Numbered from the stretch's first letter, positions 6,792 through 57,947 are shown. The stretch is 64,000 nt of DNA from Escherichia coli (GCF_024700885.2 NZ_CP117016.1), one strand, 5' to 3'. Numbers and translations are program-made. The notes: generated from the letters alone by a model not told the origin.

Positions 6792-7110
6792 CAGGTCTCC
6801 TGGTCGGATTTAATCATTCCAACACCTTATATTTTTCACAAATTTGAGAGTTGAATCTCAAATCATATCAAAAATAGCTGTCAAGAGCACCCCAAGGAAT
6901 AGTCCAAATCTGAAACTATGTCACGAGTTAACGATTCAGATTGGCGCTAAATCGCAGAAAATGTGGGGTTTATCGCAAAATTCAGCCGTTTTTTGCGCGC
7001 GATCGCTCACCCTTGCTTCTCATCCTGTGGACTTACCGCTCAGGGATGAGTTTTGTCTGGCTTATCGCTGGCAAACTGTCTGAAATCGCAGCAATAAGGA
7101 CTCATCCGCC

Positions 7111-9141
7111 ATGAAACTCGCCGCCTGTTTTCTGACACTCCTTCCTGGCTTCGCCGTTGCCGCCAGCTGGACTTCTCCGGGGTTTCCCGCCTTTAGCGAA
7201 CAGGGGACGGGAACATTTGTCAGCCACGCGCAGTTGCCCAAAGGTACGCGTCCACTAACGCTAAATTTTGACCAACAGTGCTGGCAGCCTGCGGATGCGA
7301 TAAAACTCAATCAGATGCTTTCCCTGCAACCTTGTAGCAACACGCCACCTCAATGGCGATTGTTCAGGGACGGCGAATATACGCTGCAACTAGACACCCG
7401 CTCCGGTACACCAACATTGATGATTTCCATCCAGAACGCCGTCGAACCGGTAGCAAGCCTGGTCCGTGAATGCCCGAAATGGGATGGATTACCGCTCACA
7501 CTGGATGTTAGCGCCACTTTTCCGGAGGGAGCCGCCGTCCGGGATTATTACAGCCAGCAAATTGCGATAGTGAAGAACGGTCAAATAACGTTACAACCCG
7601 CTGCCACCAGCAACGGTTTACTCCTGCTGGAACGGGCAGAAACTGACGCCTCCGCCCCTTTCGACTGGCATAACGCCACGGTTTACTTTGTGCTGACAGA
7701 TCGTTTCGAAAACGGCGATCCCAGTAATGACCAGAGTTACGGACGTCATAAAGACGGTATGGCAGAAATTGGCACTTTTCACGGCGGCGATTTACGCGGC
7801 CTGACCAACAAACTGGATTACCTCCAGCAGCTGGGCGTCAATGCTTTATGGATAAGTGCCCCATTTGAGCAAATTCACGGCTGGGTCGGCGGCGGTACAA
7901 AAGGTGATTTCCCGCATTATGCCTATCATGGTTATTACACCCAGGACTGGACGAACCTTGATGCCAATATGGGCAGCGAAGCCGATCTACGGACGCTGGT
8001 TGATAGCGCGCATCAGCGCGGTATTCGTATTCTCTTTGATGTCGTGATGAACCACACCGGCTATGCCACACTGGCGGATATGCAGGAGTATCAGTTTGGC
8101 GCGTTATATCTTTCTGGTGACGAAGTGAAAAAAACGTTGGGGGAACGCTGGAGCGACTGGAAACCTGCCGCCGGGCAAACCTGGCATAGCTTTAACGATT
8201 ACATTAATTTCAGCGACAAAACAGGCTGGGATAAATGGTGGGGAAAAAACTGGATCAGAACCGATATCGGCGATTACGACAATCCGGGATTTGACGATCT
8301 CACTATGTCGCTGGCCTTTTTGCCGGATATCAAAACCGAATCAACTACCGCTTCAGGTCTGCCGGTGTTCTATAAAAACAAAACGAATACCCACGCTAAA
8401 GTCATCGACGGTTTTACCCCTCGCGATTACTTAACCCACTGGTTAAGTCAGTGGGTTCGCGACTATGGGATTGATGGTTTTCGGGTCGATACCGCCAAAC
8501 ATGTTGAGTTGCCCGCCTGGCAGCAACTGAAAACCGAAGCCAGCGCCGCACTTCGCGAATGGAAAAAAGCTAACCCCGACAAAACATTAGATGACAAACC
8601 GTTCTGGATGACCGGTGAAGCCTGGGGCCACGGCGTGATGCAAAGTGACTACTATCGCCACGGCTTCGATGCGATGATCAATTTCGATTATCAGGAGCAG
8701 GCGGCTAAAGCAGTCGATTGTCTGGCGCAGATGGATACTACCTGGCAGAAAATGGCGGAGAAATTGCAGGATTTCAACGTGTTGAGCTACCTCTCGTCGC
8801 ATGATACCCGCCTGTTCCGTGAAGGGGGCGACAAAGCAGCAGAGTTATTATTATTAGCGCCAGGCGCGGTACAAATCTTTTATGGTGATGAATCCTCGCG
8901 TCCGTTCGGCCCCACCGGTTCGGATCCGCTGCAAGGTACGCGTTCGGATATGAACTGGCAGGATGTTAGCGGTAAATCTGCCGCCAGCGTCGCGCACTGG
9001 CAGAAAATCAGCCAGTTCCGCGCCCGCCATCCCGCAATTGGCGAGGGCAAACAAACGACACTTTCGCTGAAGCAGGGCTACGGCTTTGTTCGTGAGCATG
9101 GCGACGATAAAGTGCTGGTCATCTGGGCTGGGCAACAGTGA
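7111..9141 (+). CDS. malS: Periplasmic alpha-amylase
   Basis: 676 aa with signal peptide and GH13 motifs (GIRILFDVVMNHTG, GFRVDTAKHV); synteny. Confidence 0.93.
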   Translation: MKLAACFLTLLPGFAVAASWTSPGFPAFSEQGTGTFVSHAQLPKGTRPLTLNFDQQCWQPADAIKLNQMLSLQPCSNTPPQWRLFRDGEYTLQLDTRSGTPTLMISIQNAVEPVASLVRECPKWDGLPLTLDVSATFPEGAAVRDYYSQQIAIVKNGQITLQPAATSNGLLLLERAETDASAPFDWHNATVYFVLTDRFENGDPSNDQSYGRHKDGMAEIGTFHGGDLRGLTNKLDYLQQLGVNALWISAPFEQIHGWVGGGTKGDFPHYAYHGYYTQDWTNLDANMGSEADLRTLVDSAHQRGIRILFDVVMNHTGYATLADMQEYQFGALYLSGDEVKKTLGERWSDWKPAAGQTWHSFNDYINFSDKTGWDKWWGKNWIRTDIGDYDNPGFDDLTMSLAFLPDIKTESTTASGLPVFYKNKTNTHAKVIDGFTPRDYLTHWLSQWVRDYGIDGFRVDTAKHVELPAWQQLKTEASAALREWKKANPDKTLDDKPFWMTGEAWGHGVMQSDYYRHGFDAMINFDYQEQAAKAVDCLAQMDTTWQKMAEKLQDFNVLSYLSSHDTRLFREGGDKAAELLLLAPGAVQIFYGDESSRPFGPTGSDPLQGTRSDMNWQDVSGKSAASVAHWQKISQFRARHPAIGEGKQTTLSLKQGYGFVREHGDDKVLVIWAGQQ

Positions 9142-24915: not shown

Positions 24916-25326
24916 TTAAACGCCCGGCAATACACGCCGGGCAGCTTCCGCCAGAAACGCACTTCTGTTGGCATAGTCTGGGTTATTGCGCACGTAGGTA
25001 TCAATCTTGTTCAGTAATCTTTTTGGCATCGTAATATTGATACGTTCAGCCCGACCTTCGAACTGATTCATATTGATATCCACCAGCAACCATTGCCCGC
25101 CAATAAAGTCCTGCGCACGCTGGACCAGATGTGTTTCCACAGAGCCTGGAAGCGGCAACTCTTCATTCATCTCGCATAAGGTTTCGAAGTGCGCGACCAG
25201 TGCACTTCGCGCATCCTGGAAAGCGTAGTCCAGCGTATCACCAGCAAAATAACAGCCTGGAACATCAGGGAAAAAACCGCTGGCGCTGCCGTCAGGATCA
25301 CTGTGGATATAGGCGGGATAAAACAT
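24916..25326 (-). CDS. hicB: HicB-family antitoxin
   Basis: 136 aa; HicB-like N-domain plus C-terminal ribbon-helix-helix-like segment (RINITMPKRLLNKID…RSAFLAEAARR); 16 bp after hicA. Confidence 0.7.
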   Translation of the reverse strand: MFYPAYIHSDPDGSASGFFPDVPGCYFAGDTLDYAFQDARSALVAHFETLCEMNEELPLPGSVETHLVQRAQDFIGGQWLLVDINMNQFEGRAERINITMPKRLLNKIDTYVRNNPDYANRSAFLAEAARRVLPGV

Positions 25327-25342
25327 ATTGCCTCCTGAAATT

Positions 25343-25528
25343 TTAAAATGTTAAACCAGCCTGACGCCCAATTTGCGCCAGCGTACCGGGCTTAATATCT
25401 TTTTTAGGGTGCGGAACCGTCACCAGACCCGGATGAACAGGGTGGCGGAACTGATGACGACTGCCACGGGTTCGAATATGTTCCCAGCCATGCTGCTTCA
25501 GGATGGCGATCACGTCTGCACTTTTCAC
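25343..25528 (-). CDS. hicA: HicA-family mRNA interferase toxin
   Basis: 61 aa; HicA/YcfA-like (…HGWEHIRTRGSRHQFRHPVHPGLVTVPHPKKDIKPGTLAQIGRQAGL). Confidence 0.7.
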   Translation of the reverse strand: MKSADVIAILKQHGWEHIRTRGSRHQFRHPVHPGLVTVPHPKKDIKPGTLAQIGRQAGLTF

Positions 25529-26000
25529 ATCCCTGCCCTTCCATGATTATACACACGATACACACACAATTAGCGATAACAATCACGATAGCGCGATTTA
25601 TATGGGCCGTCAGGGGGATAAAGTTGACTCAGGAATGCCGCTCGGAAGAAGAATAACGGTGTGCAGTAATTGGTAGAAAATATGCGAGGATGCTCGCAAT
25701 TTACATATAACTCATAGTATTAGGTGTTAAAAAATCTGTATTAGATTATCCATGCGATATCGAAGCTAGTCTTGCTATAGCTCCAACTCGTATTCATTGA
25801 ACGTTTAAAACAACCAATAAAAGACACTGTTTTATTTTCTTGATAAATATCAAGTTTGTTTCACCATTGTATTTACAATGTGCAAACATTATTTTTTGTG
25901 TGTTATACATTAACTATGACCAATGATAAAGCGTTAATATATAAATATTTTCTATATTTTTATCAAACGCATTTTTATTAAATATATATAAGGAGTTATA

Positions 26001-27080
26001 ATGTCTATGGAGTTTATAGATAAGCTGAATTCATTATCCGCAAAAATAAAACAACAAGCCGGAGTCATTGAAACGGAGGAAGCTACCAAAAATGCTTTCG
26101 TAATGCCGTTCATTAACAATGTGTTAGGTTATGATGTCTTTGATCCTACCGAAGTTATCCCAGAGTTTGTATGCGATATTGGAACGAAGAAAGGTGAAAG
26201 GATTGACTATGCAATCTTAAAAAATAGCGAGGTTCAGATTCTCATTGAATGCAAAAAAATTGGCGATCCTCTAAATATAAATCATGCTTCACAGCTTTTT
26301 CGATACTTTCATGTAACAAATGCAAGAATATCTATTCTAACCAATGGACAAGTTTATAAATTTTTTACTGATTTAGAAGCACCTAATAAAATGGATGAAA
26401 AACCATTTCTTGAGATAGATCTACTTGACTTAGACGAAACAGTTGTTCCCGAGATAAAGAAGCTTACTAAATCAGCATTTGATTTGGAATCAATAATTAA
26501 TGCTGCAGGTGAATTAAAATATGTTAGTTTAATTAAAAAAGTTCTCCATGCACAAATGAATAATCCTGAAGAGGATTTTGTAAAATTCTTTGCAGCAAGA
26601 ATTTATGAAGGTATGTTAACACAAAAGGTAAAAGATACGTTTGCAAAATTAACAAAGAAAGCTGCCAATCAATATATTAACTCTCAAATAAACGAAAGAT
26701 TGAAATCGGCAATAGGTGGTGGGTCATTATCTGTAATTGATTCGAATTCACACAATGAGGAAGTTGAATGTATTAATAAAGAAGAAACCGATATTGCCAC
26801 TACTATGGAGGAACTTGAAGGATTTCATATTGTTAAAGCTATAGTTCGCGTAGTGCTTGATGCACCACGAATAGTCCACAGAGATACAAAAAGCTATTTT
26901 GGTATACTTGTAGATGACAATAATCGAAAGCCACTCTGTAGATTACATTTCAATCGAAATCAAAAATATATTGGTTTATTTGACTTAGAGAAAAACGAAA
27001 CCCGCCATCCTATTGAATCTCTCGATGATATTTATTCTTTCAGCGATGAGTTGAAAGCGACTGCCGCTTTATACAACTAA
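26001..27080 (+). CDS. Orphan HsdR-N-like PD-(D/E)xK nuclease-domain protein (candidate defence gene)
   Basis: 359 aa; aaggag RBS 5 nt upstream; N-terminal region carries D69 (RIDYAIL) and E83-x-K85 (ILIECKK) in the arrangement of type I restriction enzyme R-subunit N-terminal domains. Strongly AT-rich gene and upstream region. C-terminal about 100 aa of unknown function. Confidence 0.7.
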   Translation: MSMEFIDKLNSLSAKIKQQAGVIETEEATKNAFVMPFINNVLGYDVFDPTEVIPEFVCDIGTKKGERIDYAILKNSEVQILIECKKIGDPLNINHASQLFRYFHVTNARISILTNGQVYKFFTDLEAPNKMDEKPFLEIDLLDLDETVVPEIKKLTKSAFDLESIINAAGELKYVSLIKKVLHAQMNNPEEDFVKFFAARIYEGMLTQKVKDTFAKLTKKAANQYINSQINERLKSAIGGGSLSVIDSNSHNEEVECINKEETDIATTMEELEGFHIVKAIVRVVLDAPRIVHRDTKSYFGILVDDNNRKPLCRLHFNRNQKYIGLFDLEKNETRHPIESLDDIYSFSDELKATAALYN

Positions 27081-34367: not shown

Positions 34368-37300
34368 ATGAGCGGAAAACCGGCGGCGCGTCAGGGCGAC
34401 ATGACGCAGTATGGCGGTAGCATTGTTCAGGGTTCAGCCGGGGTACGTATTGGTGCCCCCACCGGCGTGGCCTGTTCGGTGTGCCCCGGCGGGGTGACGT
34501 CCGGCCATCCGGTCAATCCGCTGCTCGGTGCGAAGGTCCTTCCCGGCGAAACCGACCTTGCCCTGCCCGGCCCGCTGCCGTTCATCCTCTCCCGCACCTA
34601 CAGCAGTTACCGGACAAAAACGCCCGCGCCGGTGGGGAGCCTCGGCCCCGGCTGGAAAATGCCCGCGGATATCCGCTTACAGCTGCGCGATAACACACTG
34701 ATACTCAGTGATAACGGCGGCAGGAGCCTGTATTTTGAGCACCTGTTTCCCGGTGAGGACGGTTACAGCCGCAGCGAGTCACTCTGGCTGGTGCGCGGCG
34801 GCGTGGCGAAACTGGATGAAGGTCACCGGCTGGCCGCACTCTGGCAGGCACTGCCGGAAGAGCTTCGCCTGAGTCCGCATCGTTATCTGGCGACGAACAG
34901 TCCGCAGGGGCCGTGGTGGGTACTCGGCTGGTGTGAGCAGGTGCCGGAGGCGGATGAGGTGCTGCCCGCGCCGCTGCCGCCGTACCGGGTACTGACCGGG
35001 CTGGTGGACCGCTTCGGGCGCACACAGACGTTTCACCGTGAGGCTGGCGGCGAAATCACCGGCGTGACGGATGGCGCAGGCCGTCACTTCCGGCTGGTAC
35101 TGACCACGCAGGCGCAGCGGGCAGAAGAAGCCCGGCAGCAGGCCATTTCCGGCGGGACGGAACCGTCCGCTTTTCCTGATACCCTGCCGGGTTACACCGA
35201 ATATGGCCGGGACAACGGCATCCGTCTGTCTGCCGTGTGGCTGACACACGACCCGGAATATCCGGACAACCTGCCAGCCGCGCCGCTGGTACGCTATGGC
35301 TGGACGCCGCGTGGCGAACTGGCGGCGGTGTATGACCGCAGCAATACACAGGTGCGCAGCTTTACTTACGATGATAAATACCGGGGCCGGATGGTGGCGC
35401 ACCGTCACACGGGCCGACCGGAAATCCGTTACCGTTACGACAGTGACGGGCGGGTGACAGAACAGCTAAACCCGGCGGGCTTAAGCTACACGTATCAGTA
35501 TGAGAAAGACCGCATCACCATCACCGACAGCCTGGACCGCCGTGAAGTCCTGCACACGCAGGGCGAAGGCGGGCTGAAGCGGGTGGTGAAAAAGGAACAC
35601 GCGGACGGCAGCGTCATGCAGAGTCAGTTTGACGCGGTGGGCAGGCTTAAGGCACAGACGGATGCCGCAGGCCGGACGACTGAGTACAGCCCGGATGTGG
35701 TGACGGGACTCATCACGCGCATCACCACACCGGATGGCAGGGCATCGGCATTTTACTATAACCACCACAACCAGTTAACGTCAGCCACCGGGACTGACGG
35801 GCTGGAGTTGCGCCGGGAATATGATGAATCCGGCCGTCTGATTCAGGAAACCGCACACAACGGCGATATCACCCGCTACCGTTATGATAATCCACACAGT
35901 GACTTACCCTGCGCAACGGAAGATGCCACCGGCAGCCGGAAAACCATGACATGGAGCCGTTACGGTCAGTTGCTGACCGTCACTGACTGTTCCGGTTATG
36001 TAACCCGTTATGACCATGACCGTTTTGGTCAGGTGACGGCGGTGCACCGCGAGGAAGGGCTGAGTCAGTACCGCGCATACGACAGCCGTGGACAGTTAAT
36101 TGCGGTGAAAGACACGCAGGGCCATGAAACGCGGTATGAATACAACGCCGCCGGTGACCTGACCGCCGTCATTGCCCCGGACGGCAGCAGAAACGGGACA
36201 CAGTACGATGCGTGGGGAAAGGCCATCCGTACCACGCAGGGCGGTCTGACGCGCAGTATGGAATACGATGCTGCCGGACGGGTCATCCGCCTGACCAGTG
36301 AAAACGGCAGCCACACCACCTTCCGTTACGATGTACTTGACCGGCTGATACAGGAAACCGGCTTTGACGGCCGCACACAGCGTTATCACCACGACCTGAC
36401 CGGCAAACTTATCCGCAGCGAGGATGAGGGGCTGGTCACCCACTGGCACTATGACGAAGCAGACCGCATCACGCACCGCACCGTGAAGGGTGAACCGGCA
36501 GAGCAGTGGCAGTATGATGAACGCGGCTGGCTGACACAAATCAGCCATCTCAGCGAAGGCCACCGGGTGACGGTGCATTACGGGTATGATGAGAAAGGCC
36601 GCCTGACCGGTGAGCGCCAGACGGTGCATCACCCGCAGACGGAAGCACTGCTCTGGCAGCATGAAACCAGACACGCTTACAACGCGCAGGGACTGGCGAA
36701 CCGCTGTATACCGGACAGCCTGCCCGCCGTGGAATGGCTGACTTACGGCAGCGGCTGGCTGGCAGGCATGAAACTCGGCGACACACCGCTGGTGGAGTAT
36801 ACCCGCGACCGCCTGCACCGGGAAACGCTGCGCAGCTTCGGCCGTTATGAACTCACCACCGCTTATACCTCTGCCGGGCAGTTACAGAGCCAGCACCTGA
36901 ACAGCCTGCAGTATGACCGCGATTACACCTGGAACGACAACGGCGAACTCATCCGCATCAGCAGCCCGCGACAGACCCGGAGTTACAGCTACAGCGACTC
37001 CGGCAGGCTGACCGGCGTCCACACCACCACCTCAAATCTGGATATCCGCATCCCGTATGCCACGGACCCGGCAGGCAACCGCCTGCCCGACCCGGAGCTG
37101 CACCCGGACATCACCCTCAGCATGTGGCCGGATAACCGTATCGCCCGTGACGCGCACTATCTTTACCGGTATGACCGTCACGGCAGACTGACGGAGAAAA
37201 CCGACCTCATCCCGGAAGGGGTTATCCGCACGGACGATGAGCGGACTCACCAGTACCATTACGACAGTCAGCACCGGCTGGTGCACTACACGCGGACACA

Positions 37301-38555
37301 ATATGCAGAGCCGCTGGTCGAAAGTCGCTATCTTTACGACCCGCTGGGCCGCAGGGTGGCAAAACGGGTATGGCGGCGTGAACGGGACCTGACGGGCTGG
37401 ATGTCGCTGTCACGGAAACCGGAAGTGACCTGGTACGGCTGGGACGGCGACCGGCTGACCACGATACAGAACGACAGAACCCGCATCCAGACGGTTTATC
37501 AGCCGGGGAGCTTCACGCCACTCATCAGAGTTGAAACCGCCACCGGTGAGCTGGCGAAAACGCAGCGCCGCAGCCTGGCGGATGCGCTTCAGCAGTCCGG
37601 CGGCGAAGACGGTGGCAGTGTGGTGTTCCCGCCGGTGCTGGTGCAGATGCTCGACCGGCTGGAAAGTGAAATCCTGGCTGACCGGGTGAGTGAGGAAAGC
37701 CGCCGCTGGCTGGCATCGTGCGGCCTGACGGTGGAGCAGATACAAAACCAGATGGACCCGGTGTACACGCCGGCGCGAAAAATCCACCTGTACCACTGCG
37801 ACCATCGCGGCCTGCCGCTGGCGCTTGTCAGCACGGAAGGGGCAACAGAATGGTGCGCAGAATACGATGAATGGGGCAACCTGCTGAATGAAGAGAACCC
37901 GCACCAGCTGCAGCAGCTCATCCGCCTGCCGGGTCAGCAGTATGATGAGGAGTCAGGCCTGTATTACAACCGCCACCGCTATTATGACCCGCTGCAGGGG
38001 CGGTATATCACTCAGGATCCGATTGGGCTGAAGGGGGGATGGAATTTTTATCAGTATCCGTTAAATCCGGTTCAGTATATAGATTCAATGGGACTGGCAT
38101 CTAAATATGGACACTTAAATAATGGCGGATATGGAGCGAGACCCAACAAACCGCCTACGCCCGATCCAAGTAAGTTGCCAGACATAGCGAAACAATTAAG
38201 ACTGCCATATCCTATTGACCAGGCCAGTAGTGCGCCTAATGTTTTCAAAACATTCTTCAGAGCATTAAGTCCTTACGATTACACACTGTATTGCAGGAAG
38301 TGGGTAAAACCCAATCTGACTTGTACGCCGCAGGATGATCCCCAGTATCCAGGGATGGAGACAAAGACAGCAAGTGATTACCTGCCACAGACAACTTGGC
38401 CAACAACTCAATTACCACCAGGATATACTTGTGCAGAACCCTATTTATTCCCAGACATTAATAAACCCGATGGGCCAGCAACAGCAGGGATAGATGATTT
38501 GGGTGAAATTTTAGCTAAAATGAAACAGAGAACATCGAGAGGAATAAGAAAATGA
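34368..38555 (+). CDS. rhsA: Rhs-family polymorphic toxin (RhsA locus) with a divergent C-terminal toxin domain
   Basis: 1395 aa; N-terminal PAAR-like region, long YD-repeat core (…YRYD…, …YDxxGR…), the core-end motif …[31 protein letters not shown]…, then an AT-rich, compositionally distinct C-terminal tip of about 155 aa. Confidence 0.9.
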
Positions 38556-39121
38556 AAAGAGCTTTGTTCTTTTTGCTGATGATATTCGTTAGTTTTGGTG
38601 TTATAGCTAATTGCGAAACACAAGCTAAAGATCAAGATTGCTTTACCATTTTCACTAAGGGTACTATTTTTTCCGCGTTTCCTGTCTTAAATAATAAAAC
38701 CATGTGGAGATGGTATCAGAATGAGGACATAGGTGAGTATTATTGGCAAACAGAGCTTGGTATATGTAAAAATAACAAATTCACACCAAGCGGGGCGAGA
38801 CTCTTAATTCTCGTCGGATCACTACGCCTTAATGAAAATCATGCAACCAAAGGAACGTTGCAGGAGTTGCTAAATACAGCAGAAAAAACGGCGTTTCTCG
38901 GCGATCGGTTTAGAAGTTATATAAGAGCGGGTATCTATCAAAAAAAGAGCAGTGATCCAGCTCAGTTGTTGGCAGTCCTTGATAATTCAATCATGGTTAA
39001 ATATTTTAAAGATGAGAAGCCAACTTATGCTCGAATGACAGCACATCTCCCGAACAAAGATGAGTCTTACGAATGTTTAACAAAAGTACAGCATGAACTG
39101 CTTCGTAGTGAAGAAAAATAA
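38552..39121 (+). CDS. Putative cognate immunity protein of the rhsA C-terminal toxin
   Basis: 189 aa; start overlaps the rhsA stop (ATGA); AT-rich; N-terminal hydrophobic leader ([19 protein letters not shown]) suggests export. Role inferred from position only. Confidence 0.5.
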
Positions 39122-39289
39122 AATCTCTTCCTGAGAAAATAAATTAACTATTCGAAAAAATATGTTCTTAATGGGTATCCAGGAACACCAGAAGGTCGAT
39201 TTGGAAAAATGGATTCCGATGGTAAGAATATCATATATTCTGAATGTAATGTTTTACCCACAACTTTTGAGATTCGATAGGTGTAGAGC

Positions 39290-39637
39290 ATGAGAAACTC
39301 ACTAATATTACTTATTATGATATTGTTTACAATATCACACTCAGTATTTGGAAAAGAAAATTCAGCGGAAATTTTAGTAAATAGTCGTGAAATGGCTTTG
39401 GAATTATCATATGTTTATATTAAATATATATACGGGAAAGAAAAAGCAGAATTTCAGAAACCATATAGTATTACAGATGACAATAATTGTTGGAAAATCG
39501 AGGGAAAACAACCGAAGACGTTAGGAGGAAATTTTACAATACTAATAGCGAAAAAAGATGGGCAAGCGTTGGATGTAATACACAAAATAATCCACTGTTC
39601 AGACGATTCAAATATTTTACCAAGGTGTGTTTCGTAA
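39290..39637 (+). CDS. Small secreted immunity-like protein
   Basis: 115 aa; signal-peptide-like N-terminus; paralogous to the frameshifted ORF at 41240-41507. Confidence 0.45.
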   Translation: MRNSLILLIMILFTISHSVFGKENSAEILVNSREMALELSYVYIKYIYGKEKAEFQKPYSITDDNNCWKIEGKQPKTLGGNFTILIAKKDGQALDVIHKIIHCSDDSNILPRCVS

Positions 39638-39799
39638 CTATTTTGTGTACAATATGACTCTACATATCGACGAAAAAACCACTTGATTTGACAGGAACAC
39701 ATTCAAAAAAATTTCTTTTTCATTTCAGGAGCGATTTTCATCTGTTACTTGAAGTATCTGTGAGATTAAGTGACTCCCCCTAACGTCGTACTAAATAGT

Positions 39800-40100
39800 A
39801 ATTACTGGCCATACCGGGAGCAGTATTCGGCGCTTCCCACATGCAGCAGAATAACCGCATCAGCGAAGATGTATTGTATTTTTACTATCACAATGTGTAC
39901 GGACGGTTTATGGAAAAGAATGAACATTAGATACGCGATGCGGCGGCAGGTTACACGGTTATCACTACGATAGCCAATACTGGCTGGTGCATTACCGCCG
40001 TGAACAATAGGACGCCGTACTGCTGGAAATTTCTTACCTTTATGACTCCCCGCGCCGCCGTATTGGGAAACGGGAAGCAATCAAGATGAGGCTGATATAA
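39800..40100 (+). pseudogene. Degraded Rhs core remnant 1
   Basis: Translates in pieces to …QNNRISEDVLYFYYHNVYGRFMEKNEH*… and …HYDSQYWLVHYRREQ*…YLYDSPRRRIGKREAIK…, alignable to rhsA residues …[26 protein letters not shown]…[13 protein letters not shown]…[13 protein letters not shown]…; in-frame stops. Confidence 0.55.
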
Positions 40101-40297
40101 TGTGCGGAATGCCTGAGTATTTTTAGAATAGGGGGGTAATATGTTTGATAGAATATATCTTGGTGATCGAGCAATAAAAAATTGAATTTGATTTATGGAG
40201 TAAACAAATTAGAATTCAGGTTAATTTAATCTCAAGGATAGCCTATGGTACAACAGAATGGAATTTTTATGATAATGAAGACTTAGAAGATGGTTAT

Positions 40298-40540
40298 TTG
40301 GTATTTTCAGATGTTAGTTTCTTCAATATAACTCCTAATGGCTCTATTCCAGATGATTATATAATTTCAATAATTACAGATAATGTCAATGTTGAATATT
40401 TTGAATCAACTATAGTTGCTGTTGGTCAAATTCGAAACACAAATGTTGGTGACATTGATAATATTGGTGAATGTCAAATTTTCATCAGGTATAAAGACAG
40501 CTGGATTGAGAATAAACTCAAAGAAAAAATAATTGAATAA
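40298..40540 (+). CDS. Hypothetical small protein (TTG start in track)
   Basis: 80-aa ORF in the AT-rich spacer after Rhs remnant 1; no recognisable motif. Confidence 0.25.
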   Translation: MVFSDVSFFNITPNGSIPDDYIISIITDNVNVEYFESTIVAVGQIRNTNVGDIDNIGECQIFIRYKDSWIENKLKEKIIE

Positions 40541-40639
40541 CCATGTTATGTATAGACATTTTAGATGGAACGAACCAGAGGAAGGCATGCCTCCGACTTG
40601 GGTTATATGGGCACGGAGTTTTAGTGTAGTGAACTCAAC

Positions 40640-40710
40640 GACGCAAACCGAATAACCTGCCGCTGGCGCTTATCAGCACGTAAGGGACAACAGCGTAGTA
40701 CGTAGAATAA
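40640..40710 (+). pseudogene. Degraded Rhs core remnant 2
   Basis: cctgccgctggcgcttatcagcacgtaagggacaacag… matches the rhsA core segment cctgccgctggcgcttgtcagcacggaaggggcaacag… at about 37810. Confidence 0.45.
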
Positions 40711-40792
40711 TCCTACCCACGTAGTATGGACACAGGCCTAAGCGAGGTTCTGGTTTTCAAATTTTTCGGGAGTTAGATGATTGGAGGAACAG

Positions 40793-41158
40793 ATGATAAG
40801 AATCGCATTTTTAATAACCAATAAATTTCTTGAGATAGATAGTACCACTCTTGCTGGATATGATTTTAGCGGGATGAATCTACATCGTGCCACCCTCAAT
40901 GGTTATTGTCTTGATGGGGCGAAATTTGAAAAAACTCATTTAAGAAATGTAATGATTCAACATACATCAACTAGAAATGCTGTCTTTCGCAATGCGGCTC
41001 TGATGAATGCTATTCTGAATAACTCAGATTTCACTGGAAGTGATTGTAGTAATTCAAGGTCAATAGGTGAAAATTTTAAAGCAATAGATAATCATGGGAA
41101 AGATATAATAAATGGAAAAGGATTGCCTAATGTTTGCAAAATACATGACAACGTATAA
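40793..41158 (+). CDS. Pentapeptide-repeat protein
   Basis: About 121 aa from MIRIAF (ggagga RBS); tandem pentapeptide-like repeats (…ATLNGYCLDGAKFEKTHLRNVMIQHTSTRNAVFRNAALMNAILNNSDFTGSDCSNS…). Confidence 0.5.
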   Translation: MIRIAFLITNKFLEIDSTTLAGYDFSGMNLHRATLNGYCLDGAKFEKTHLRNVMIQHTSTRNAVFRNAALMNAILNNSDFTGSDCSNSRSIGENFKAIDNHGKDIINGKGLPNVCKIHDNV

Positions 41159-41239
41159 GAAAATATTATTCAGAACCTATGTGATTGTATCTTTATTTTT
41201 ACATACAACACATGGGCGCAGTGTAATAATATTATTATA

Positions 41240-41507
41240 ATGCGCAAGTATGAAAGTGAGGGGAAATACACCGTTAGAAATTTGGTCAAAAATAAAGCTA
41301 TAGCATTGGAATTAGCTGAGATGTATGTTAAAAATCGTTATGGACATGATGCCGAAGAAGAAAAAAAAACCATACAAAATCATGGAATTACCAACAAGTT
41401 GGATTGTTGAAGGCACCATTGAATCAGACCAAATTGCTGGTAGGGTTTTTATTATAGAAATAGGCAAAAATGACGGGAGAATTCTAAATTTTGGCCACGG
41501 AAAATAA
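41240..41507 (+). pseudogene. Frameshifted paralog of the 39290-39637 immunity-like gene
   Basis: Frame 1 from ATG 41240 reads MRKYESEGKYTVRNLVKNKAIALELAEMYVKNRYGHDAEEEKK, then an A9 homopolymer (41361-41369) shifts the frame into the track ORF 41325-41507 (…PYKIMELPTSWIVEGT…GKNDGRILNFGHGK). Removing one A restores an intact reading frame of about 88 codons. Confidence 0.5.
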
Positions 41508-41611
41508 GTATGTAAGGATAAACAAACATCGTGTGTGCTGATGGCAGAGTAGGTGGAGGACTCCAGACAGTCAAACGATAGAAAAAGATAGTCTTTATGG
41601 AGGTTCCTGCA

Positions 41612-42454
41612 ATGTCGAATACATACCAGAAAAGAAAGGCAAGTAAAGAGTATGGTTTATACAATCAATGTAAGAAACTAAATGATGATGAATTATTTCG
41701 CTTACTTGATAATCGCAATTCATTGAAAAGGATTTCATCTGCCAGAGTATTGCAGCTAAGAGGTGGGCAAGACGCTGTTAGATTGGCAATTGAATTCTGC
41801 GCTGACAAAAATTATATCCGTAGAGATATAGGAGCATTTATACTCGGGCAAATAAAAGTTTGCAAAAAATGCGAAGATAGCGTTTTTAATATTTTAAAAA
41901 AGATGGCACTGAATGATAAAAGTGCTTGCGTTCGAGCTACAGCAATCGAGTCAACTGCTCAGCGATGCAAGAAAAACCCAATTTATTCACCTAAAATAGT
42001 AGAACAATCTCAAATTACTGCTTTTGATAAATCGGCTAATGTCAGACGTGCTACGGCATTTGCTATTTCTGTTATCAATGATAAAGAAACAATTCCACTA
42101 TTGATTAATCTGTTAAAAGATCCAAATGGAGATGTCAGAAACTGGGCCGCATTTGCAATAAATATCAATAAATATGATAATAGTGATATTAGGGATTATT
42201 TTGTGGAGATGCTTCAGGATAAAAATGAGGAAGTCCGTATTGAAGCAATAATCGGACTTTCCTACAGAAAAGATAAAAGGGTTTTATCTGTTTTATGCGA
42301 TGAGTTAAAAAAAAATACTGTTTATGATGATATCATTGAAGCTGCGGGTGAATTAGGTGATAAAACGCTACTTCCTGTTTTAGATACTATGTTGTACAAG
42401 TTTGATGACAATGAAATTATAACTTCCGTTATTGATAAGCTGAAGCGTTCATAG
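41612..42454 (+). CDS. yibA: HEAT-repeat protein YibA
   Basis: 280 aa from MSNTYQKRKASKEYGLYNQ…; recognised as the K-12 rhsA-adjacent YibA. Track start is 5 codons upstream. Confidence 0.85.
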   Translation: MSNTYQKRKASKEYGLYNQCKKLNDDELFRLLDNRNSLKRISSARVLQLRGGQDAVRLAIEFCADKNYIRRDIGAFILGQIKVCKKCEDSVFNILKKMALNDKSACVRATAIESTAQRCKKNPIYSPKIVEQSQITAFDKSANVRRATAFAISVINDKETIPLLINLLKDPNGDVRNWAAFAININKYDNSDIRDYFVEMLQDKNEEVRIEAIIGLSYRKDKRVLSVLCDELKKNTVYDDIIEAAGELGDKTLLPVLDTMLYKFDDNEIITSVIDKLKRS

Positions 42455-42495
42455 CGTGAGTTGCCTATGCACAGTGAGGTATTCCCGCCGGCACG

Positions 42496-43305
42496 GTGCA
42501 GATGCTCGACCGGCTGGAAAGTGAAATCCTGGCTGACCGGGTGAGTGAGGAAAGCCGACGCTGGCTGGCATCGTGCGGCCTGACGGTGGCGCAGATGCAA
42601 AACCAGATGGACCCGGTGTACACGCCGGCGCGAAAAATCCACCTGTACCACTGCGACCATCGCGGCCTGCCGCTGGTGCTTATCAGCACGGAAGGGGCAA
42701 CAGAATGGTGCGCAGAATACGATGAGTGGGGCAACCTGCTGAATGAAGAGAACCCGCACCAGCTGCAGGGGCGGTATATCACTCAGGATCCGATTGGACT
42801 GAAGGGGGGATGGAATTTTTATCAGTATCCGTTGAATCCGATAACTGATATTGACCCGTTGGGATTAGCGACCTGTTTATACAGCATAACTTTAGGTATG
42901 CTTTCATGCGTTTCAGATACGCCAAGTGATGATAATTCTTATGGTGTGCTTACTATTTCAGTCGCCTCTGGTAATAATGGTAATAATATGCAATGTAAAA
43001 ATAATCCTGGTTGTACACACTTACAAAATAGAGGCCCAATACCTCCAGGGGTATGGAGCTGGAATGTTAATGGTCCTGGAGCAACTAATAGAAAACCTAA
43101 TGGTATACGTTTAGTACCGTCAGCAAATACAGAAACGTATAATCGTGATGGATTTTTAACACATAGTTGTTTAAACGCTTTTGGTCCATCTTTAGGACCT
43201 CGATTCTGTTCCGAGGGTTGTATAACTGGTTCATCTAATGACATGCAAAAATTAAATGAGCTAATATTTTCAGAGCCAGATAGCACATTAACAGTGACGG
43301 ACTAG
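42496..43305 (+). CDS. yibJ: Orphan Rhs C-terminal fragment with Cys/Gly-rich toxin-like tip
   Basis: 269-aa ORF; its first about 100 aa match the end of the rhsA core (…[16 protein letters not shown]…[18 protein letters not shown]), with a 28-codon deletion spanning [12 protein letters not shown]. Symbol from position. Confidence 0.65.
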
Positions 43306-43309
43306 AAAT

Positions 43310-43705
43310 ATGGCAAGGTTATTAACAATTGTGCTTTTTTTCTCTATTTCTGCGAATGCAGTTACTGTAAACCAATTTCAGAGAGAGTTGGATTTGGCAG
43401 ACAAGGCAATATTATGGGCACTAATATCAGCCAGTACCCAAGAGGGACGAAAAGCGTGTTCACTTAGCTATTTTTCATGTAAAGCCGCAGAGGCTGAACT
43501 CGGACTGGCATATATGGCTGCTAATGATAACAAGGCATTTCTCACATCCTTATCTAGAATAATGATGTACAAAATAGATGCTGGACTTTCCGAATCCTAT
43601 ACATGCTATTTATTAAGCAAGGGAAAGATCATAAGACCATATCTGAAGAATCTAAATCCACACCAACTTGTCGCTGATTGCATTGAAACTGTAAATAAAA
43701 GATAA
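43310..43705 (+). CDS. yibG: Small secreted protein, putative immunity partner of the yibJ fragment
   Basis: 131 aa; signal-peptide-like N-terminus (MARLLTIVLFFSISANA); 4 bp after yibJ. Symbol assigned by position only. Confidence 0.4.
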   Translation: MARLLTIVLFFSISANAVTVNQFQRELDLADKAILWALISASTQEGRKACSLSYFSCKAAEAELGLAYMAANDNKAFLTSLSRIMMYKIDAGLSESYTCYLLSKGKIIRPYLKNLNPHQLVADCIETVNKR

Positions 43706-44283
43706 AAATAAAAAAATCATTGATATAGATTCAGTTAATATTTGCAATGATAATAAAAATATAAATTGGAGAGTTAATAGTACTATTGTAGCCATTGATG
43801 ATTCTATAAAATGCATCGATGAATAATAACTTAATTATATTTAAAAATATATTAATGACTCACTCTCCAGGAGTTTTTTAACTTAGTGTTATAATGAATA
43901 CGATAATTAAAAGTGAAGAGAAAAATAGTTGTATACATATATTACATGAACCTACATTGTGATCTATAAATTAAATATTTTTAAATGTGACTGTCATCCT
44001 TCAGATAATAAAGCCATCATCGCAATAGATGGAAAAGCACTCCTGCTCTTTTTTGATTAGAGCCGTGGCAGAGGAACAACTCATATCATCATTGCGATCT
44101 CGACAATGTATGGTCTGATCCTTCGGCAGATCAAGACGGATAAAAAATCCAATGAGTTCACACTCATCCCGAACTTCTTAACATAATGGATATTAACGAA
44201 AAATCATCGCAGCCAATGAAGTAATATGCAAAAATAATTAGTCCTTACAGGGAGCAAAGTTCCATAATCTCCCCCTTCCCTAC

Positions 44284-52217: not shown

Positions 52218-55200
52218 ATGAACAAAATTTTTAAAGTTATCTGGAATCCAGCGACGGGCAGTTACAGCGTTGCCAGCGAAACGGCGAAGAGCCGTGGCAA
52301 AAAGAGCGGACGCAGTAAGCTGTTAATTTCTGCGCTGGTTGCGGGTGGGCTGTTGTCGTCGTTTGGGGCAAGTGCAGATAATTACACTGGGCAGCCAACT
52401 GATTATGGCGATGGCTCAGCAGGTGACGGCTGGGTTGCTATCGGTAAAGGTTCAAAAGCAAATACCTTTATAAACACAAGTGGCGCGAGTACAGCTTTAG
52501 GTTATGACGCGATAGCCGAAGGTGAGTACAGCTCTGCCATCGGGTCAAAAACCCTCGCAAGTGGTGGAGCATCCATGGCGTTTGGGGTTAGTGCAAAAGC
52601 ATTAGGTGACAGAAGTGTCGCGCTGGGTGCATCTTCAACAGCAACTGGCGATCGTTCGATGGCTCTTGGTCGTTACGCAAAGACGAACGGTTTTACATCT
52701 CTTGCTGTTGGGGACTCCTCCCTTGCCGATGGTGAAAAAACTATTGCGTTAGGAAATACGGCTAAAGCTTACGAAATTATGAGCATCGCCCTCGGTGATA
52801 ATGCCAATGCGTCAAAAGAATATTCAATGGCGCTGGGTGCAAGTAGCGCCGCATCTGCGGCTAACGCGATTGCAGTAGGCCGCAACAGTGCTGCTGCTGG
52901 CGTAGACAGCCTCGCATTAGGTAGACAATCACTTGCCAGTGCAGCGAACGCCATTACGATTGGTGCTGAAAGCGAAGCCGCTGAAAATGCGACGGCTGTA
53001 GGTACTAAAGCGAAAGCTCGAGGCAAAAACAGTCTTGCATTAGGTGCAAACAGTGATTCAACAGGTGAAGGTTCTGTTGCCCTGGGATATACAGCAGCGG
53101 CTGCTGGCGCAAGTGCTCTTGCCTTGGGGCAAAATGCGCAAGCATCAAACACAAACACCATTGCATTAGGCCAGAACAGCAGCGCATCAACCGCAAATGC
53201 TATTGCGATCGGTACAGGAAGTTCTGCGGTTGGATCAAACAGTCTTGCATTGGGAAGTTCATCTTCTGCAGGAGGGAATAATTCCGTCGCGATTGGTGCA
53301 AGCTCTACTGCAGATGAAGACAACGTTGTGTCGGTCGGCTCAGGGTCAGCACAGCGTCGCATCGTCAATATGGCGGCAGGTGAAATCTCAACAGACAGTA
53401 AAGAAGCCATTAACGGTTCACAACTTTACGCCATTAGTCGGTCGGTAGCAGACAGGCTGGGAGGCGGAGCAGATGTAGCCAGTAACGGAACAATAAAGGG
53501 GATGTCTTATAAACTGAAGAAAAGGGATTTCAATAACGTTGGTGAAGCACTCCAGTACCTTGACAATGAAACTCTGCACTGGGACTCAGCTAAAGGGGCT
53601 TTCAGCGCCAGTTATATTGTTAAAAATGCTGATGGAACGATTGCCAGTACCGTAGCAGAAAACAAAATCATCAATGTAAAAGATGGCGATATTTCGGCTA
53701 CCAGTAAAGACGCCATTAACGGCTCTCAGCTGAAAACCACCAACGATAACGTAGCGACCAACACCACCAATATCACCAACCTGACTGATTCCGTTGGCGA
53801 CCTTAAAGACGATGCCCTGCTGTGGAATGGCACCGCATTCAGCGCCGCTCACGGTACCGATGCCACCAGCAAAATCACCAACGTCAAAGACGGTGACCTG
53901 ACGGCTGGCAGCACTGACGCGGTAAACGGCTCTCAGCTCAAAACCACTAACGATGCCGTGGCAGCCAACACCACCAATATCGCCACGAACACCACCAACA
54001 TCACCAACCTGACTGACGCTGTTGACAGTCTCGGTGATGACTCTCTGCTGTGGAACGCTACTGCGGGGGCATTCAGTGCCGCGCACGGTACTGATGCCAC
54101 CAGCAAAATCACTAACGTCAAAGACGGTGACCTGACGGCTGGCAGCACTGACGCGGTTAACGGCTCTCAGCTCAAAACCACTAACGATGCCGTGGCAGCC
54201 AACACCACCAATATCGCCACGAACACCACCAACATCACCAACCTGACTGACGCTGTTGACAGTCTCGGTGATGACTCTCTGCTGTGGAATGATGCAGCGA
54301 AAGCATTCAGCGCCGCGCACGGTACTGATGCCACCAGCAAAATCACCAACGTCAAAGACGGTGACCTGACGGCTGGCAGCACTGACGCGGTTAACGGCTC
54401 TCAGCTAAAAACCACTAACGATGCCGTGACAGCCAACACCACCAATATCGCCACTAACACCACCAACATCACCAACCTGACTGACGCTGTTGACAGTCTC
54501 GGTGATGACTCTCTGCTGTGGAACGCTACTGCGGGGGCATTCAGCGCCGCGCACGGTACTGATGCCACCAGCAAAATCACTAACGTCAAAGACGGTGACC
54601 TGACGGCTGGCAGCACTGACGCGGTTAACGGCTCTCAGCTCAAAACCACTAACGATGCTGTGGCAGCCAACACCACCAATATCGCCACGAACACCACCAA
54701 CATCACCAACCTGACTGACGCTGTTGACAGTCTCGGTGACGATTCCCTGCTGTGGAACGCTACGGCGGGGGCATTCAGTGCCGCACACGGTACTGATGCC
54801 ACCAGCAAAATCACTAACGTCAAAGACGGTGACCTGACGGCTGGCAGCACTGACGCGGTTAACGGCTCTCAGCTCAAAACCACCAACGATAATGTGGCAA
54901 CCAACACCACCAATATCGCCACGAATACCACCAACATCACCAACCTGACTGACGCTGTTGACAGTCTCGGTGACGATTCCCTGCTGTGGAACGCTACGGC
55001 GGGGGCATTCAGTGCCGCACACTGTACTGATGCCACCAGCAAAATCACTAACGTCAAAGACGGTGACCTGACGGCTGGCAGCACTGACGCGGTTAACGGC
55101 TCTCAGCTCAAAACCACCAACGATAATGTGGCAACCAACACCACCAATATCGCCACGAATACCACCAACATCACCAACCTGACTGACGCTGTTGACAGTC

Positions 55201-57947
55201 TCGGTGATGACTCTCTGCTGTGGAACGCTACGGCGGGTGCATTCAGTGCCAAACACGGCACCAACGGTACTGACAGCAAAATCACCAACTTACTGGCAGG
55301 CACTGTATCCTCTGATAGCACTGACGCCATTAATGGCTCACAACTTTATGGCTTAGCTGATTCATTTACGTCATACCTTGGCGGTGGTGCTGATATCAGT
55401 GATGCGGGTGTATTAACCGGGCCAACCTACACTATTGGTGGTACTGACTACAATAACGTCGGTGATGCTCTGGCTGCCATTAACACGTCATTTAGCACAT
55501 CACTCGGTGATGCCCTACTCTGGGATGCGACCGCCAAGGGCGGTGACGGTGCGTTTAGCGCCGGTCGCGGAAAAGATAACACGGCCAGCATCATTACTAA
55601 TGTTGCAGACGGTGCAATTTCCTCTACCAGCAGCGACGCTATTAACGGCTCACAGCTCTATGACACCAGCAAGTACATTGCCGATACTCTGGGTGGTGAC
55701 GCAGAAGTCAATGCTGACGGCACAATCACCGCACCGACTTATGCCATCGCTGGCGGCAGTTACAGCAACGTCGGTGACGCGCTGGAAGCGATCGATACCA
55801 CGCTGGATGACGCTCTGTTGTGGGATGCAACAGCCAATGATGGCAATGGTGCATTTAGCGCCGCTCACGGAAAAGATAAAACAGCCAGTGTAATCACTAA
55901 CGTCGCTAACGGTGCAATCTCTGCCACCAGCAGCGATGCCATTAACGGTTCACAACTGTATACCACCAACAAGTACATTGCCGATGCCCTGGGTGGTGAC
56001 GCAGAAGTTAACGCTGATGGTTCTATTACTGCGCCGACTTACACCATTGCAAATGCCGAGTACAACAACGTCGGTGACGCCCTGGATGCGCTCGACGATA
56101 ACGCTCTGCTGTGGGATGCAACAGCCAATGACGGCGCAGGTGCCTACAACGCCAGCCATGACGGCAAGGCCAGCATCATCACAAATGTTGCTGATGGTAA
56201 CATTGGCGAAGGCAGCACTGACGCCATCAACGGTTCTCAGCTGTTTAACACCAATATGCTGATCCAGCAGAACAGCGAAATCATCAATCAGCTTGCCGGT
56301 AACACCAGCGAAACCTACATCGAAGATAACGGTGCGGGCATTAACTATGTACGTACCAACGACAACGGCTTAGCGTTCAACGATGCCAGCGCTTCAGGTA
56401 TTGGCGCTACGGCTGTGGGTTATAACGCTGTCGCCTCAGGCGAAAGCAGCGTAGCCATTGGTCAAGGTAGCAGCAGCTCCGTTGATACGGGTATCGCCCT
56501 GGGTAGCAGTTCCGTTTCCAGCCGTGTAATAGTTAAAGGTTCTCGTGACACCAGCGTGTCGGAAGAAGGTGTTGTGATTGGTTATGACACCACGGATGGC
56601 GAACTACTTGGTGCGTTGTCTATTGGTGATGACGGTAAATATCGTCAAATCATCAACGTAGCCGATGGTTCCGAAGCCCATGACGCCGTTACGGTTCGCC
56701 AGTTGCAAAATGCCATTGGTGCAGTCGCTACCACGCCGACCAAATACTTCCACGCTAACTCAACAGCTGAAGATTCACTGGCTGTCGGTGAAGACTCGCT
56801 GGCAATGGGTGCGAAAACCATTGTTAATGGTGATGCAGGGATCGGTATTGGCCTGAACACTCTGGTGTTAACTGATGCAATCAACGGTATTGCTATCGGT
56901 AGCAACGCGAGTGCAAATCATGCAAACAGTATTGCGATGGGTAGTGGTTCCCAGACCACCCGTGGTGCGCAGACTGACTACACCGCCTACAACATGGACG
57001 CGCCGCAGAATTCTGTCGGTGAATTCTCTGTCGGCAGCGAAGACGGTCAACGTCAGATCACCAACGTCGCGGCTGGTTCAGCGGATACCGATGCGGTTAA
57101 CGTAGGTCAGTTGAAAGTCACTGATGAGCGCGTAGCGCAAAATACCCAGAGCATTACTAACCTGAACAATCAGGTGACGAATCTGGATACTCGCGTTACC
57201 AATATCGAAAACGGCATTGGCGATATCGTAACCACCGGTAGCACCAAATACTTCAAGACCAACACCGATGGCGTAGATGCCAACGCGCAGGGTAAAGATA
57301 GTGTTGCGATTGGTTCTGGTTCCATTGCTGCCGCTGACAACAGCGTCGCGCTGGGTACCGGTTCCGTGGCCAACGAAGAAAACACCATCTCTGTGGGTTC
57401 TTCTACCAACCAGCGTCGTATCACCAACGTTGCTGCAGGTGTTAATGCCACCGATGCGGTTAACGTTTCGCAGCTGAAGTCTTCTGAGGCAGGCGGCGTT
57501 CGTTACGACACCAAAGCTGATGGTTCTATAGACTACAGCAACATCACTCTCGGTGGTGGTAATGGCGGTACGACTCGCATCAACAACGTCTCCGCTGGCG
57601 TCAACAACAACGACGCAGTGAACTATGCGCAGCTGAAGCAAAGCGTGCAGGAAACGAAGCAATATACCGATCAGCGGATGGTTGAGATGGATAACAAACT
57701 GTCCAAAACCGAAAGCAAGTTGAGCGGTGGTATCGCTTCTGCAATGGCAATGACCGGTCTGCCGCAGGCTTACACTCCAGGTGCCAGCATGGCCTCTATT
57801 GGTGGCGGTACTTACAATGGTGAATCGGCTGTTGCTTTAGGTGTGTCGATGGTGAGCGCCAATGGTCGTTGGGTCTACAAATTACAAGGTAGTACCAATA
57901 GCCAGGGTGAATACTCCGCCGCGCTCGGTGCCGGTATTCAGTGGTAA
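52218..57947 (+). CDS. upaG: Trimeric autotransporter adhesin (UpaG/EhaG-like)
   Basis: 1909 aa; extended signal peptide ([21 protein letters not shown]…); many head/neck repeats with INGSQL and NVAAG motifs; C-terminal YadA-type anchor ending …[13 protein letters not shown]. Symbol from recalled location beside lldP; exact allele not determinable. Confidence 0.85.
53845..55260 (+). repeat. In-frame 234-bp tandem repeat array (about 6 units) inside the adhesin gene
   Basis: The 60-mer acgtcaaagacggtgacctgacggctggcagcactgacgcggt(a/t)aacggctctcagctca recurs at 53881, 54115, 54349, 54583, 54817 and 55051, a spacing of exactly 234 bp; each unit encodes a 78-aa repeat. Confidence 0.9.

Follow-up and report, generated by a model that had tools for sequence, protein, structure and literature searches.

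How much is a stored toxin worth when the short stretch of shared sequence through which it could be recruited has itself been damaged? The question arises at the rhsA locus in a 64,000-nucleotide stretch of an Escherichia coli chromosome (GCF_024700885.2, NZ_CP117016.1), referred to at its full length as the window. Here the 3′ end of the rhsA core recurs as a direct repeat at an orphan toxin gene downstream, and the downstream copy lacks 84 bp in frame. The gene order in the window is selB-selA-yibF, the rhsA locus, and yibH-yibI-mtlA. The region is very probably the E. coli rhsA polymorphic-toxin locus in its standard main-plus-orphan layout, with an orphan that is decaying in one lineage, and we infer recombination for this strain. 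The main/orphan architecture of Rhs genes at the founding locus is already known in kind. The argument turns on the following genes.

34368-38555, + strand: full-length rhsA, 1395 aa, an open reading frame (ORF) named 'RHS element core protein' by the Prokaryotic Genome Annotation Pipeline (PGAP) in strain MLI114
38076-38555, + strand: current toxin tip of rhsA, recognised by a sequence match to the ybfC-adjacent orphan of K-12
42496-43305, + strand: orphan ORF, GTG start, 269 aa; its core fragment lacks the 28 codons but has both DPxGL motifs, and its tip is Tlde1-like
42847-43305, + strand: Tlde1-like tip of the orphan (Pfam Tlde1_dom)
43310-43826, + strand: Imm57 immunity gene of the orphan tip (Pfam Imm57, 151.7 bits, profile positions 2-100 of 100)

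The direct repeat is real and far above chance. A repeat search returns two pairs, 37640-37913 with 42495-42768 (274 nt, 98%, 6 mismatches, ungapped) and 37987-38098 with 42758-42869 (112 nt, 86%). MAFFT alignment begins the homology at 37616/42472, with a 1-bp indel by the left edge, and stops it at about 38075/42846. Between these limits the downstream copy shows one clean 84-column gap, after which homology resumes. The left arm contains perfect blocks of 63, 31, 79, 43 and 42 nt. In the right arm, 79 nt (37991-38069 against 42762-42840) align with 2 mismatches (97%), and the perfect blocks there measure 36 and 35 nt. The parts of the repeat are as follows.

37616-37906, + strand: left arm of repeat copy 1, aligning to 42472-42761
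37907-37990, + strand: 84-bp segment of 28 codons present only in the main copy, with GCTGCAG at both edges
37991-38075, + strand: right arm of repeat copy 1, ending where the tips diverge (alignment to copy 2)
42472-42761, + strand: left arm of repeat copy 2, which is the orphan core fragment (repeat search, MAFFT and GC content)
42762-42846, + strand: right arm of repeat copy 2 (alignment)
42762-42768, + strand: 7-bp GCTGCAG microhomology at the deletion junction (alignment)

The deletion edges can slide by up to 7 bp, GCTGCAG being present on both sides, and the 40-mer across the deleted junction reads GAACCCGCACCAGCTGCAGGGGCGGTATATCACTCAGGAT. An earlier sequence-only reading of this DNA had the essentials right. 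The end of the rhsA core does recur downstream as homologous nucleotide sequence (274 nt at 98% and 79 nt at 97%), and the coordinates it gave, 37627-38070 and 42479-42840, fall within about 10 bp of the true boundaries. The toxin/immunity cargo that it placed between the copies at 4.4 kb measures 4,396 bp, from the end of copy 1 at 38076 to the start of copy 2 at 42471. Comparison of the translations bears out its 28-codon in-frame deletion, as the orphan protein is without exactly 28 residues present in the main copy and retains DPIGL. Its further claim, that the first DP-containing segment of the core end is removed, needs correcting: YYDPLQ is lost, but this is not a canonical DPxGL motif, and both of those are kept.

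Composition and domain content describe the same layout. From its start, rhsA comprises an N-terminal region, a GC-rich YD-repeat core, a core-end motif and an AT-rich C-terminal tip. GC content runs at 61-64% across the core against 29-44% across cargo and tips, and the orphan core fragment stands out as a 60% island; a GC-rich core against AT-rich tips, with a GC-rich orphan island, is the classic Rhs signature. The locus holds a full-length rhs gene with an Rhs-associated core domain and a variable tip, followed downstream by a 3′ core piece with another tip and its own immunity gene, and the core DNA of the two is near-identical. In a domain scan, rhsA matches NF041261 (RHS_core) and TIGR03696, the latter over all 76 positions (1-76/76, 83.9 bits). 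The orphan ORF matches Pfam RHS at 54 bits and TIGR03696 at positions 42-76 of 76 only (35.3 bits), short of the complete 76-position domain, of which roughly half has gone.

The deletion falls in the C-terminal plug. In solved Rhs systems, this plug is the aspartyl protease domain; its two DPxGL motifs lie 17 residues from each other, with cleavage after the second (PMC8636562; PMC8765631). As in the plug/autoprotease domains of P. protegens RhsA, P. laumondii Rhs1, Tse5 and Tse15, the main copy has the full 76 positions of TIGR03696, and both copies keep a DPxGL pair with catalytic aspartates, 17 residues apart: DPIGL, then DSMGL in the main copy or DPLGL in the orphan. The second protease motif on the current rhsA is DSMGL, not DPxGL. 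Unlike those proteins, the orphan has lost the conserved Tse5-equivalent stretch; its 28 missing residues align to the most conserved part of Tse5 and Tse15.

The orphan tip is a predicted peptidoglycan-targeting toxin. Tlde1 proteins are L,D-transpeptidase-like type VI secretion system effectors that act on peptidoglycan in the periplasm and carry the catalytic motif HXX14-17-(S/T)HGCh (PMC9638812). The likeness of the window tip to these effectors, predicted from sequence, lies in its Pfam Tlde1_dom match, its arrangement of His, 15 residues and S-x-G-C-hydrophobic, and the signal-like immunity protein beside it. The differences are that the window domain is fused to an Rhs core end and is not free-standing, that its immunity family is Imm57 and not Tldi1, that its Pfam score is marginal (32.8 bits against a cutoff of 30.1), and that its motif is SEGCI and not (S/T)HGCh, with Cys kept and Glu in place of His before Gly-Cys. 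PGAP names the orphan 'tlde1 domain-containing protein' and also labels it 'frameshifted'. The orphan ORF has no signal peptide, and no convincing Shine-Dalgarno sequence was found for it.

Imm57 is also damaged, a point beyond the sequence-only reading. Alignment with the EC26, XH990 and DSM alleles reveals a 5-bp deletion at about 43692/43693, in an AAATA repeat, that leaves a protein of 131 aa (ORF end 43705) in place of the intact 173 aa. PGAP flags the gene 'frameshifted', and its product has a signal-peptide-like N-terminus. Lesions in the same module occur in other lineages: a stop codon in the DSM tip, a change of SEGC to FEGC in PS10-3, and many indels in K-12. The PS10-3 change lies in a second Tlde1/Imm57 orphan copy at the rhsB locus (L007 4772-10217), which has an intact core end and an altered Ser in the catalytic motif; such an rhsB copy is found in some strains. 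Separately, an early frameshift in Imm57 (T8 to T7 in a run near codon 11) occurs in PE164 (L002 9696-10216) and K-12 (L004 9544-10065). PE164 has the Tlde1 tip on a full-length rhsA despite this frameshift: either its toxin lacks functional immunity, or the system is inactive, or the frameshift in PE164 is a homopolymer error of sequencing.

The 84-bp deletion is derived and confined to one lineage. Four designed BLAST queries were used to search 5,426 complete E. coli genomes. One, of 1,301 bp and spanning the junction, finds a single-piece match, at 99.6-100%, in exactly 35 of these genomes. After them rank XH990, Santai, DSM 103246 and over 20 more among those listed (97.0-97.1%), which match in two pieces spanning 1,384-1,386 bp, so these yibA-orphan-Tlde1-Imm57 genomes have the 84 bp. 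In all, over 25 genomes outside the 35 share this yibA-orphan order and are undeleted. A synthetic undeleted junction-plus-tip query is covered to at least 80% in 59 genomes and its native counterpart in 93, which fits about 34-35 deleted and 59 intact alleles. When the alleles are aligned, the gap appears in the window sequence alone. Isolates with the deleted allele were obtained on several continents, from water and from human, dog, chicken and mink hosts, and window positions 37400-43800 are 100% identical to MLI114 and about 30 further complete genomes. In a protein database search with the orphan ORF, the 120 matches listed are all of 470 aa or less, and the exact deleted orphan (P0001, 267 aa) has 181 member sequences. 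Replication slippage between the two 7-bp GCTGCAG repeats, 84 bp apart, would have made the deletion, and is the simplest origin because intact yibA-orphan-Tlde1 alleles exist.

Recombination between a main rhs gene and an orphan has a well-studied precedent. In Salmonella Typhimurium LT2, an orphan Rhs toxin becomes active when main and orphan recombine across 522 bp of 95% identical sequence; the orphan tip is thereby joined to the delivery core, and the recombinant loses the main immunity gene and hence was recovered after duplication of the locus (Koskiniemi et al., 2014; PMC3967940). The window resembles LT2 in that its main tip and immunity gene lie between direct repeats of the core 3′ end, here 274 + 79 bp at 97-98%. 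Unlike that of LT2, the window repeat is broken by a deletion in frame, and 28 conserved residues would be missing from most products. The window further differs in that its orphan immunity gene is truncated, that none of the 35 genomes with the deleted allele holds a recombined arrangement, and that it is known from sequence alone.

For the intact allele, recombined arrangements do occur. A synthetic recombinant query (core upstream of the repeat, left arm, deleted junction, Tlde1 tip and Imm57) is fully covered in several genomes, always in at least two pieces. In the five best (Ec73552, 2013C-4282, PE164, E105 and F2_81), the matched stretch measures 2,021-2,030 bp where the query match is 1,946 bp, which means that these strains have an undeleted core end; PI24 ranks lower with the same span. 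The Tlde1 tip sits directly on a full-length core in these five strains and in PI24. In PE164 the order is rhsA::Tlde1-Imm57-yibH, and the orphan is absent. The many three-piece matches, O157:H7 and IAI1 among them, come from K-12-like arrays and do not represent recombinants. BLAST finds the deleted junction on a full-length core in none of the 5,426 complete genomes.

The clearest case is a pair of near-isogenic strains. EC26 carries rhsA with an RhsC-type tip, ybfB, an orphan in which 1,065 bp of core are fused to the Tlde1 tip, and Imm57, whereas Ec73552 carries rhsA::Tlde1 and then Imm57. The flanks of the two loci are 99.88% and 99.93% identical, each flanking gene that both records list has the same protein accession in the two, and the length difference is 1,867 bp. 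The Ec73552 gene changes from the main to the orphan register of EC26 within a 926-bp interval in which the EC26 cores are identical. This is main-by-orphan recombination, or its exact reverse, at the same locus and with the same tip. DSM 103246 against Santai/XH990 forms a second displacement pair. The sequence-only reading had proposed that recombination would swap a yibJ tip onto rhsA, and had turned on the existence of strains with the recombined arrangement. The mechanism is established (PMC3967940; PMC2935791) and EC26/Ec73552 exemplify it, but the yibJ tip is not present in the window, most crossovers there would import the deletion, and the recombined strains among complete genomes carry the intact allele, none the deleted one.

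The C-terminal displacement model explains downstream tip arrays with core fragments of variable length (Jackson et al., 2009; PMC2935791). Under this model, older tip/immunity modules would have been pushed downstream, each retaining a 3′ core piece, and the direct repeat would be the piece kept before the most distal, oldest module, that of the Tlde1-like peptidoglycan-targeting tip and Imm57. RecA-type recombination between main and orphan would remove 4.8 kb and fuse the orphan tip to rhsA. Decay in the lineage comprises the 84-bp in-frame deletion, which takes 28 residues of the C-terminal plug/autoprotease domain, and the separate 5-bp deletion that shortens the immunity gene. A crossover in the 274-bp upstream arm would build an rhsA without part of the plug, and only rare crossovers in the 79-bp arm would yield an intact chimera.

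In the classical literature, the minimal processing segment for recombination in E. coli is about 25 nt. If that length is assumed, the left arm offers about 138 productive registers and the right arm 23, and an estimated 85% or so of crossovers would carry the deletion into rhsA while about 15% would not. Of about 353 bp of usable homology, 274 bp are upstream of the deletion, and therefore most crossovers would import it.

Several points weigh against this account of a decaying orphan behind a compromised repeat. The crossover estimate depends on the assumed segment length and is calculated, not measured. The effect of the deletion is likewise one that we infer: with about 30% of the plug lost, closure of the cocoon or release of the tip would suffer. 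The truncated Imm57 protein keeps its Pfam domain whole and may still give immunity. The Tlde1 tip ORF of the window is still intact, and the ratio of non-synonymous to synonymous substitution (dN/dS) between two groups of tip alleles is about 0.2, calculated from only 15 substitutions (9 synonymous, 6 non-synonymous); the orphan module is therefore not long dead. Lastly, the left flank of the junction is nearest to E1 (98.0%, with an alignment that stops exactly at 42768) and the right flank is nearest to EC26 (98.1-98.8% from 42758). Because the flanks are nearest to different strains, the junction could be an out-of-register recombination joint.

The most durable alternative builds on this last point, and is possible though doubtful. 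It holds that the 84-bp gap is a scar of how the locus was put together. A yibJ-type orphan core fragment, which came with the cargo-yibA array, would have been joined out of register, at GCTGCAG, to a resident distal Tlde1 orphan, and the yibJ tip and yibG would have been deleted thereby. Window positions 36001-42768 are collinear with the rhsB locus of E1, which continues past the junction into an intact core end, a yibJ-type tip and sel1/yibG. Beyond the junction, where EC26 is the best relative, XH990 and PE164 reach just 94.5-94.9% or so, and the K-12 order yibA-yibJ-yibG-Tlde1 remnant-Imm57 is the presumed precursor of such a joint. However, single-nucleotide polymorphisms (SNPs) in the orphan core do not favour E1, which has 4 differences against 3-4 for DSM/XH990. 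The switch in closest relative can be placed only within alignment columns 288-420 (about 130, deletion included), not at the junction, and informative SNPs are few. In-register homologous recombination is strongly favoured over a 7-bp microhomology join, and the intact yibA-orphan-Tlde1 alleles in many genomes provide a ready ancestor for slippage. Replication slippage remains the preferred origin.

Unlikely, by comparison, is the idea that the orphan is an autonomously expressed toxin-antitoxin-like module and that the deletion matters by removing its promoter. Salmonella rhs orphans are reported to be expressed from an internal promoter, P2, contained in a 108-bp sequence (PMC7043789). That sequence is 73% identical to window positions 37923-38030, and its hexamers, TTGACG and TACAAT with 17 nt between them, align to 37942-37947 and 37965-37970, both within the 84 bp absent from the orphan. 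The placement of the -35 and -10 in P2 is our own reading of its sequence, though, and the corresponding E. coli hexamers are weak (ATGATG, 3/6; TACAAC, 4/6, without the final T) and fail the criteria of a promoter scan. Nor does a promoter/terminator scan around the orphan detect enrichment, with 12 promoter-like sites against 11.0 expected from shuffled sequence. A Tlde1 tip that acts in the periplasm and has no signal peptide should be harmless when expressed in the cytoplasm, which leaves no basis for addiction (PMC9638812). A functional -35/-10 of the Salmonella P2 type thus does not appear in the core end, its hexamers being deleted in the orphan and weak in the main copy, and a regulatory reading of the deletion is improbable.

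Slightly harder still to credit is that the 84-bp loss is a selected, disarming lesion, one that removes the P2 homologue, silencing the orphan tip and Imm57, and makes the commonest crossovers yield a dead Rhs protein. If true, it would shield a lineage with a damaged Imm57 from an activated Tlde1 tip and would explain the unrecombined state of all 35 genomes. That the repeat and its deletion are an assembly or annotation artefact can effectively be set aside: repeats carry a general risk of misassembly and PGAP labels the orphan 'frameshifted', but 35 independent complete genomes from varied hosts and countries all have this junction, the deletion keeps the frame and has clean edges at the microhomology, and intact alleles assemble normally elsewhere.

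A decaying orphan in an otherwise standard rhsA locus remains the preferred reading, and the K-12 rhsA locus is its closest comparison. In K-12 (MC4100 record), rhsA is followed in order by yibA, yibJ (a core fragment with a tip of its own), the SEL1-like gene yibG, another short core fragment that bears a degraded Tlde1-like tip, a frameshifted Imm57, and yibH. Shared with the window are the site (yibF | rhsA ... yibH), the contrast of a GC-rich core with AT-rich tips, yibA, the orphan core fragment that follows it, the distal Tlde1/Imm57 module, and dissociated tips that each keep a core fragment of variable length. The sequence-only reading had called the orphan yibJ. By position the name fits, for the core fragment in the window and the yibA-yibJ core fragment of K-12 are collinear at 96.1%; the tip, however, is Tlde1-like with Imm57, and tip and immunity gene together match the distal K-12 remnant downstream of yibG at about 90-91%, not the yibJ tip and yibG, both absent from the window. 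The two loci also differ in that the Tlde1 tip is intact in the window and degraded in K-12, that the orphan core end of the window has the 84-bp deletion, and that the window has an extra 3.5-kb cargo array between rhsA and yibA.

The main tips differ as well. The window tip is not that of K-12 RhsA; together with its YbfC-like neighbour, it is 95.8% identical over 1,088 bp to K-12 733963-735051, annotated 'ybfC' and 'RHS repeat-associated core domain-containing protein'. By this match, the current rhsA tip is of the type of the silent rhsC-locus orphan beside ybfC in K-12. Pfam and NCBIfam scans give no family match for the tip or the YbfC-like protein. From position only, the YbfC-like gene is the presumed immunity gene of the current tip. 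The N-terminus of its product is signal-like or lipoprotein-like, which hints at a periplasmic target for that tip. This gene and the remaining cargo are as follows.

38552-39121, + strand: YbfC-like 189-aa protein with a signal-like N-terminus (ORF; annotated ybfC in matching genomes)
39290-39637, + strand: NTF2-fold immunity gene with no adjoining toxin, an orphan immunity gene (Pfam Imm-NTF2-2, 65 bits)
40181-40540, + strand: DUF6258 family gene (Pfam DUF6258, 69.9 bits; PGAP)
40656-40709, + strand: third rhs core copy, a 54-bp remnant (85% to 37811-37864; repeat family D3)
40702-40771: IS3-family end fragment adjoining the 54-bp core remnant
40781-41507, + strand: decayed cargo, a pentapeptide-repeat pseudogene and a frameshifted NTF2-fold immunity gene (Pfam Pentapeptide; PGAP pseudogene flags)
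41597-42454, + strand: yibA, HEAT-repeat protein and immunity gene of the K-12 RhsA tip (Pfam HEAT_2; collinear with K-12 6567-7775)

The third core remnant (40656-40709) was omitted from the sequence-only reading. The IS3-family fragment that it abuts matches plasmid and chromosomal copies of the insertion sequences (IS) IS3 and IS2 over 62-70 bp at 92.9-98.1%, and their contact suggests IS-mediated truncation of an earlier orphan. Neutralisation of the K-12 RhsA C-terminal toxin by yibA is credited to Vlazny and Hill (1995), as cited in PMC3150448. In the window, yibA is intact but its toxin is gone, with about 32 bp of the K-12 rhsA 3′ end left upstream (41560-41591). As an orphan immunity gene, yibA could protect against attackers with K-12-type RhsA. 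It carries a stop or frameshift in XH990, Santai and DSM 103246.

The cargo array, yibA and the orphan core fragment (38076-41560 on) are 98% collinear with the E1 rhsB locus (L010 3926-10688). Most of the cargo array also occurs in about 235 other genomes at 95-99% identity, its location having been looked at in E1 only. Evidently, tip arrays of several genes travel en bloc from one rhs locus to another. Elsewhere in the window, the annotation of MLI114 places the toxin-antitoxin pair hicA/hicB, together with a solitary 'type I restriction endonuclease' gene (24916-27080), between aldB and a GH127 glycoside hydrolase gene. It puts a 5.7-kb gene for a YadA-like trimeric autotransporter adhesin (52218-57947) between lldP and a DUF3251 gene.

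The locus shows, in clean textbook form, how a repertoire of Rhs toxins is kept in store and rearranged. Across K-12, E1, XH990/Santai, DSM 103246, EC26, Ec73552 and PE164, it offers a natural series of displacement and collapse involving one tip at one locus, near-isogenic pair included. What is new is that the orphan core end has, in one lineage only, a deletion in frame, so placed that most recombination would import it; beyond these points, current understanding is unchanged. How useful an orphan is as a spare depends on whether its short core fragment, and not the tip alone, is intact, and a deleted chimera may serve as a natural mutant for how much C-terminal plug an Rhs cocoon requires.

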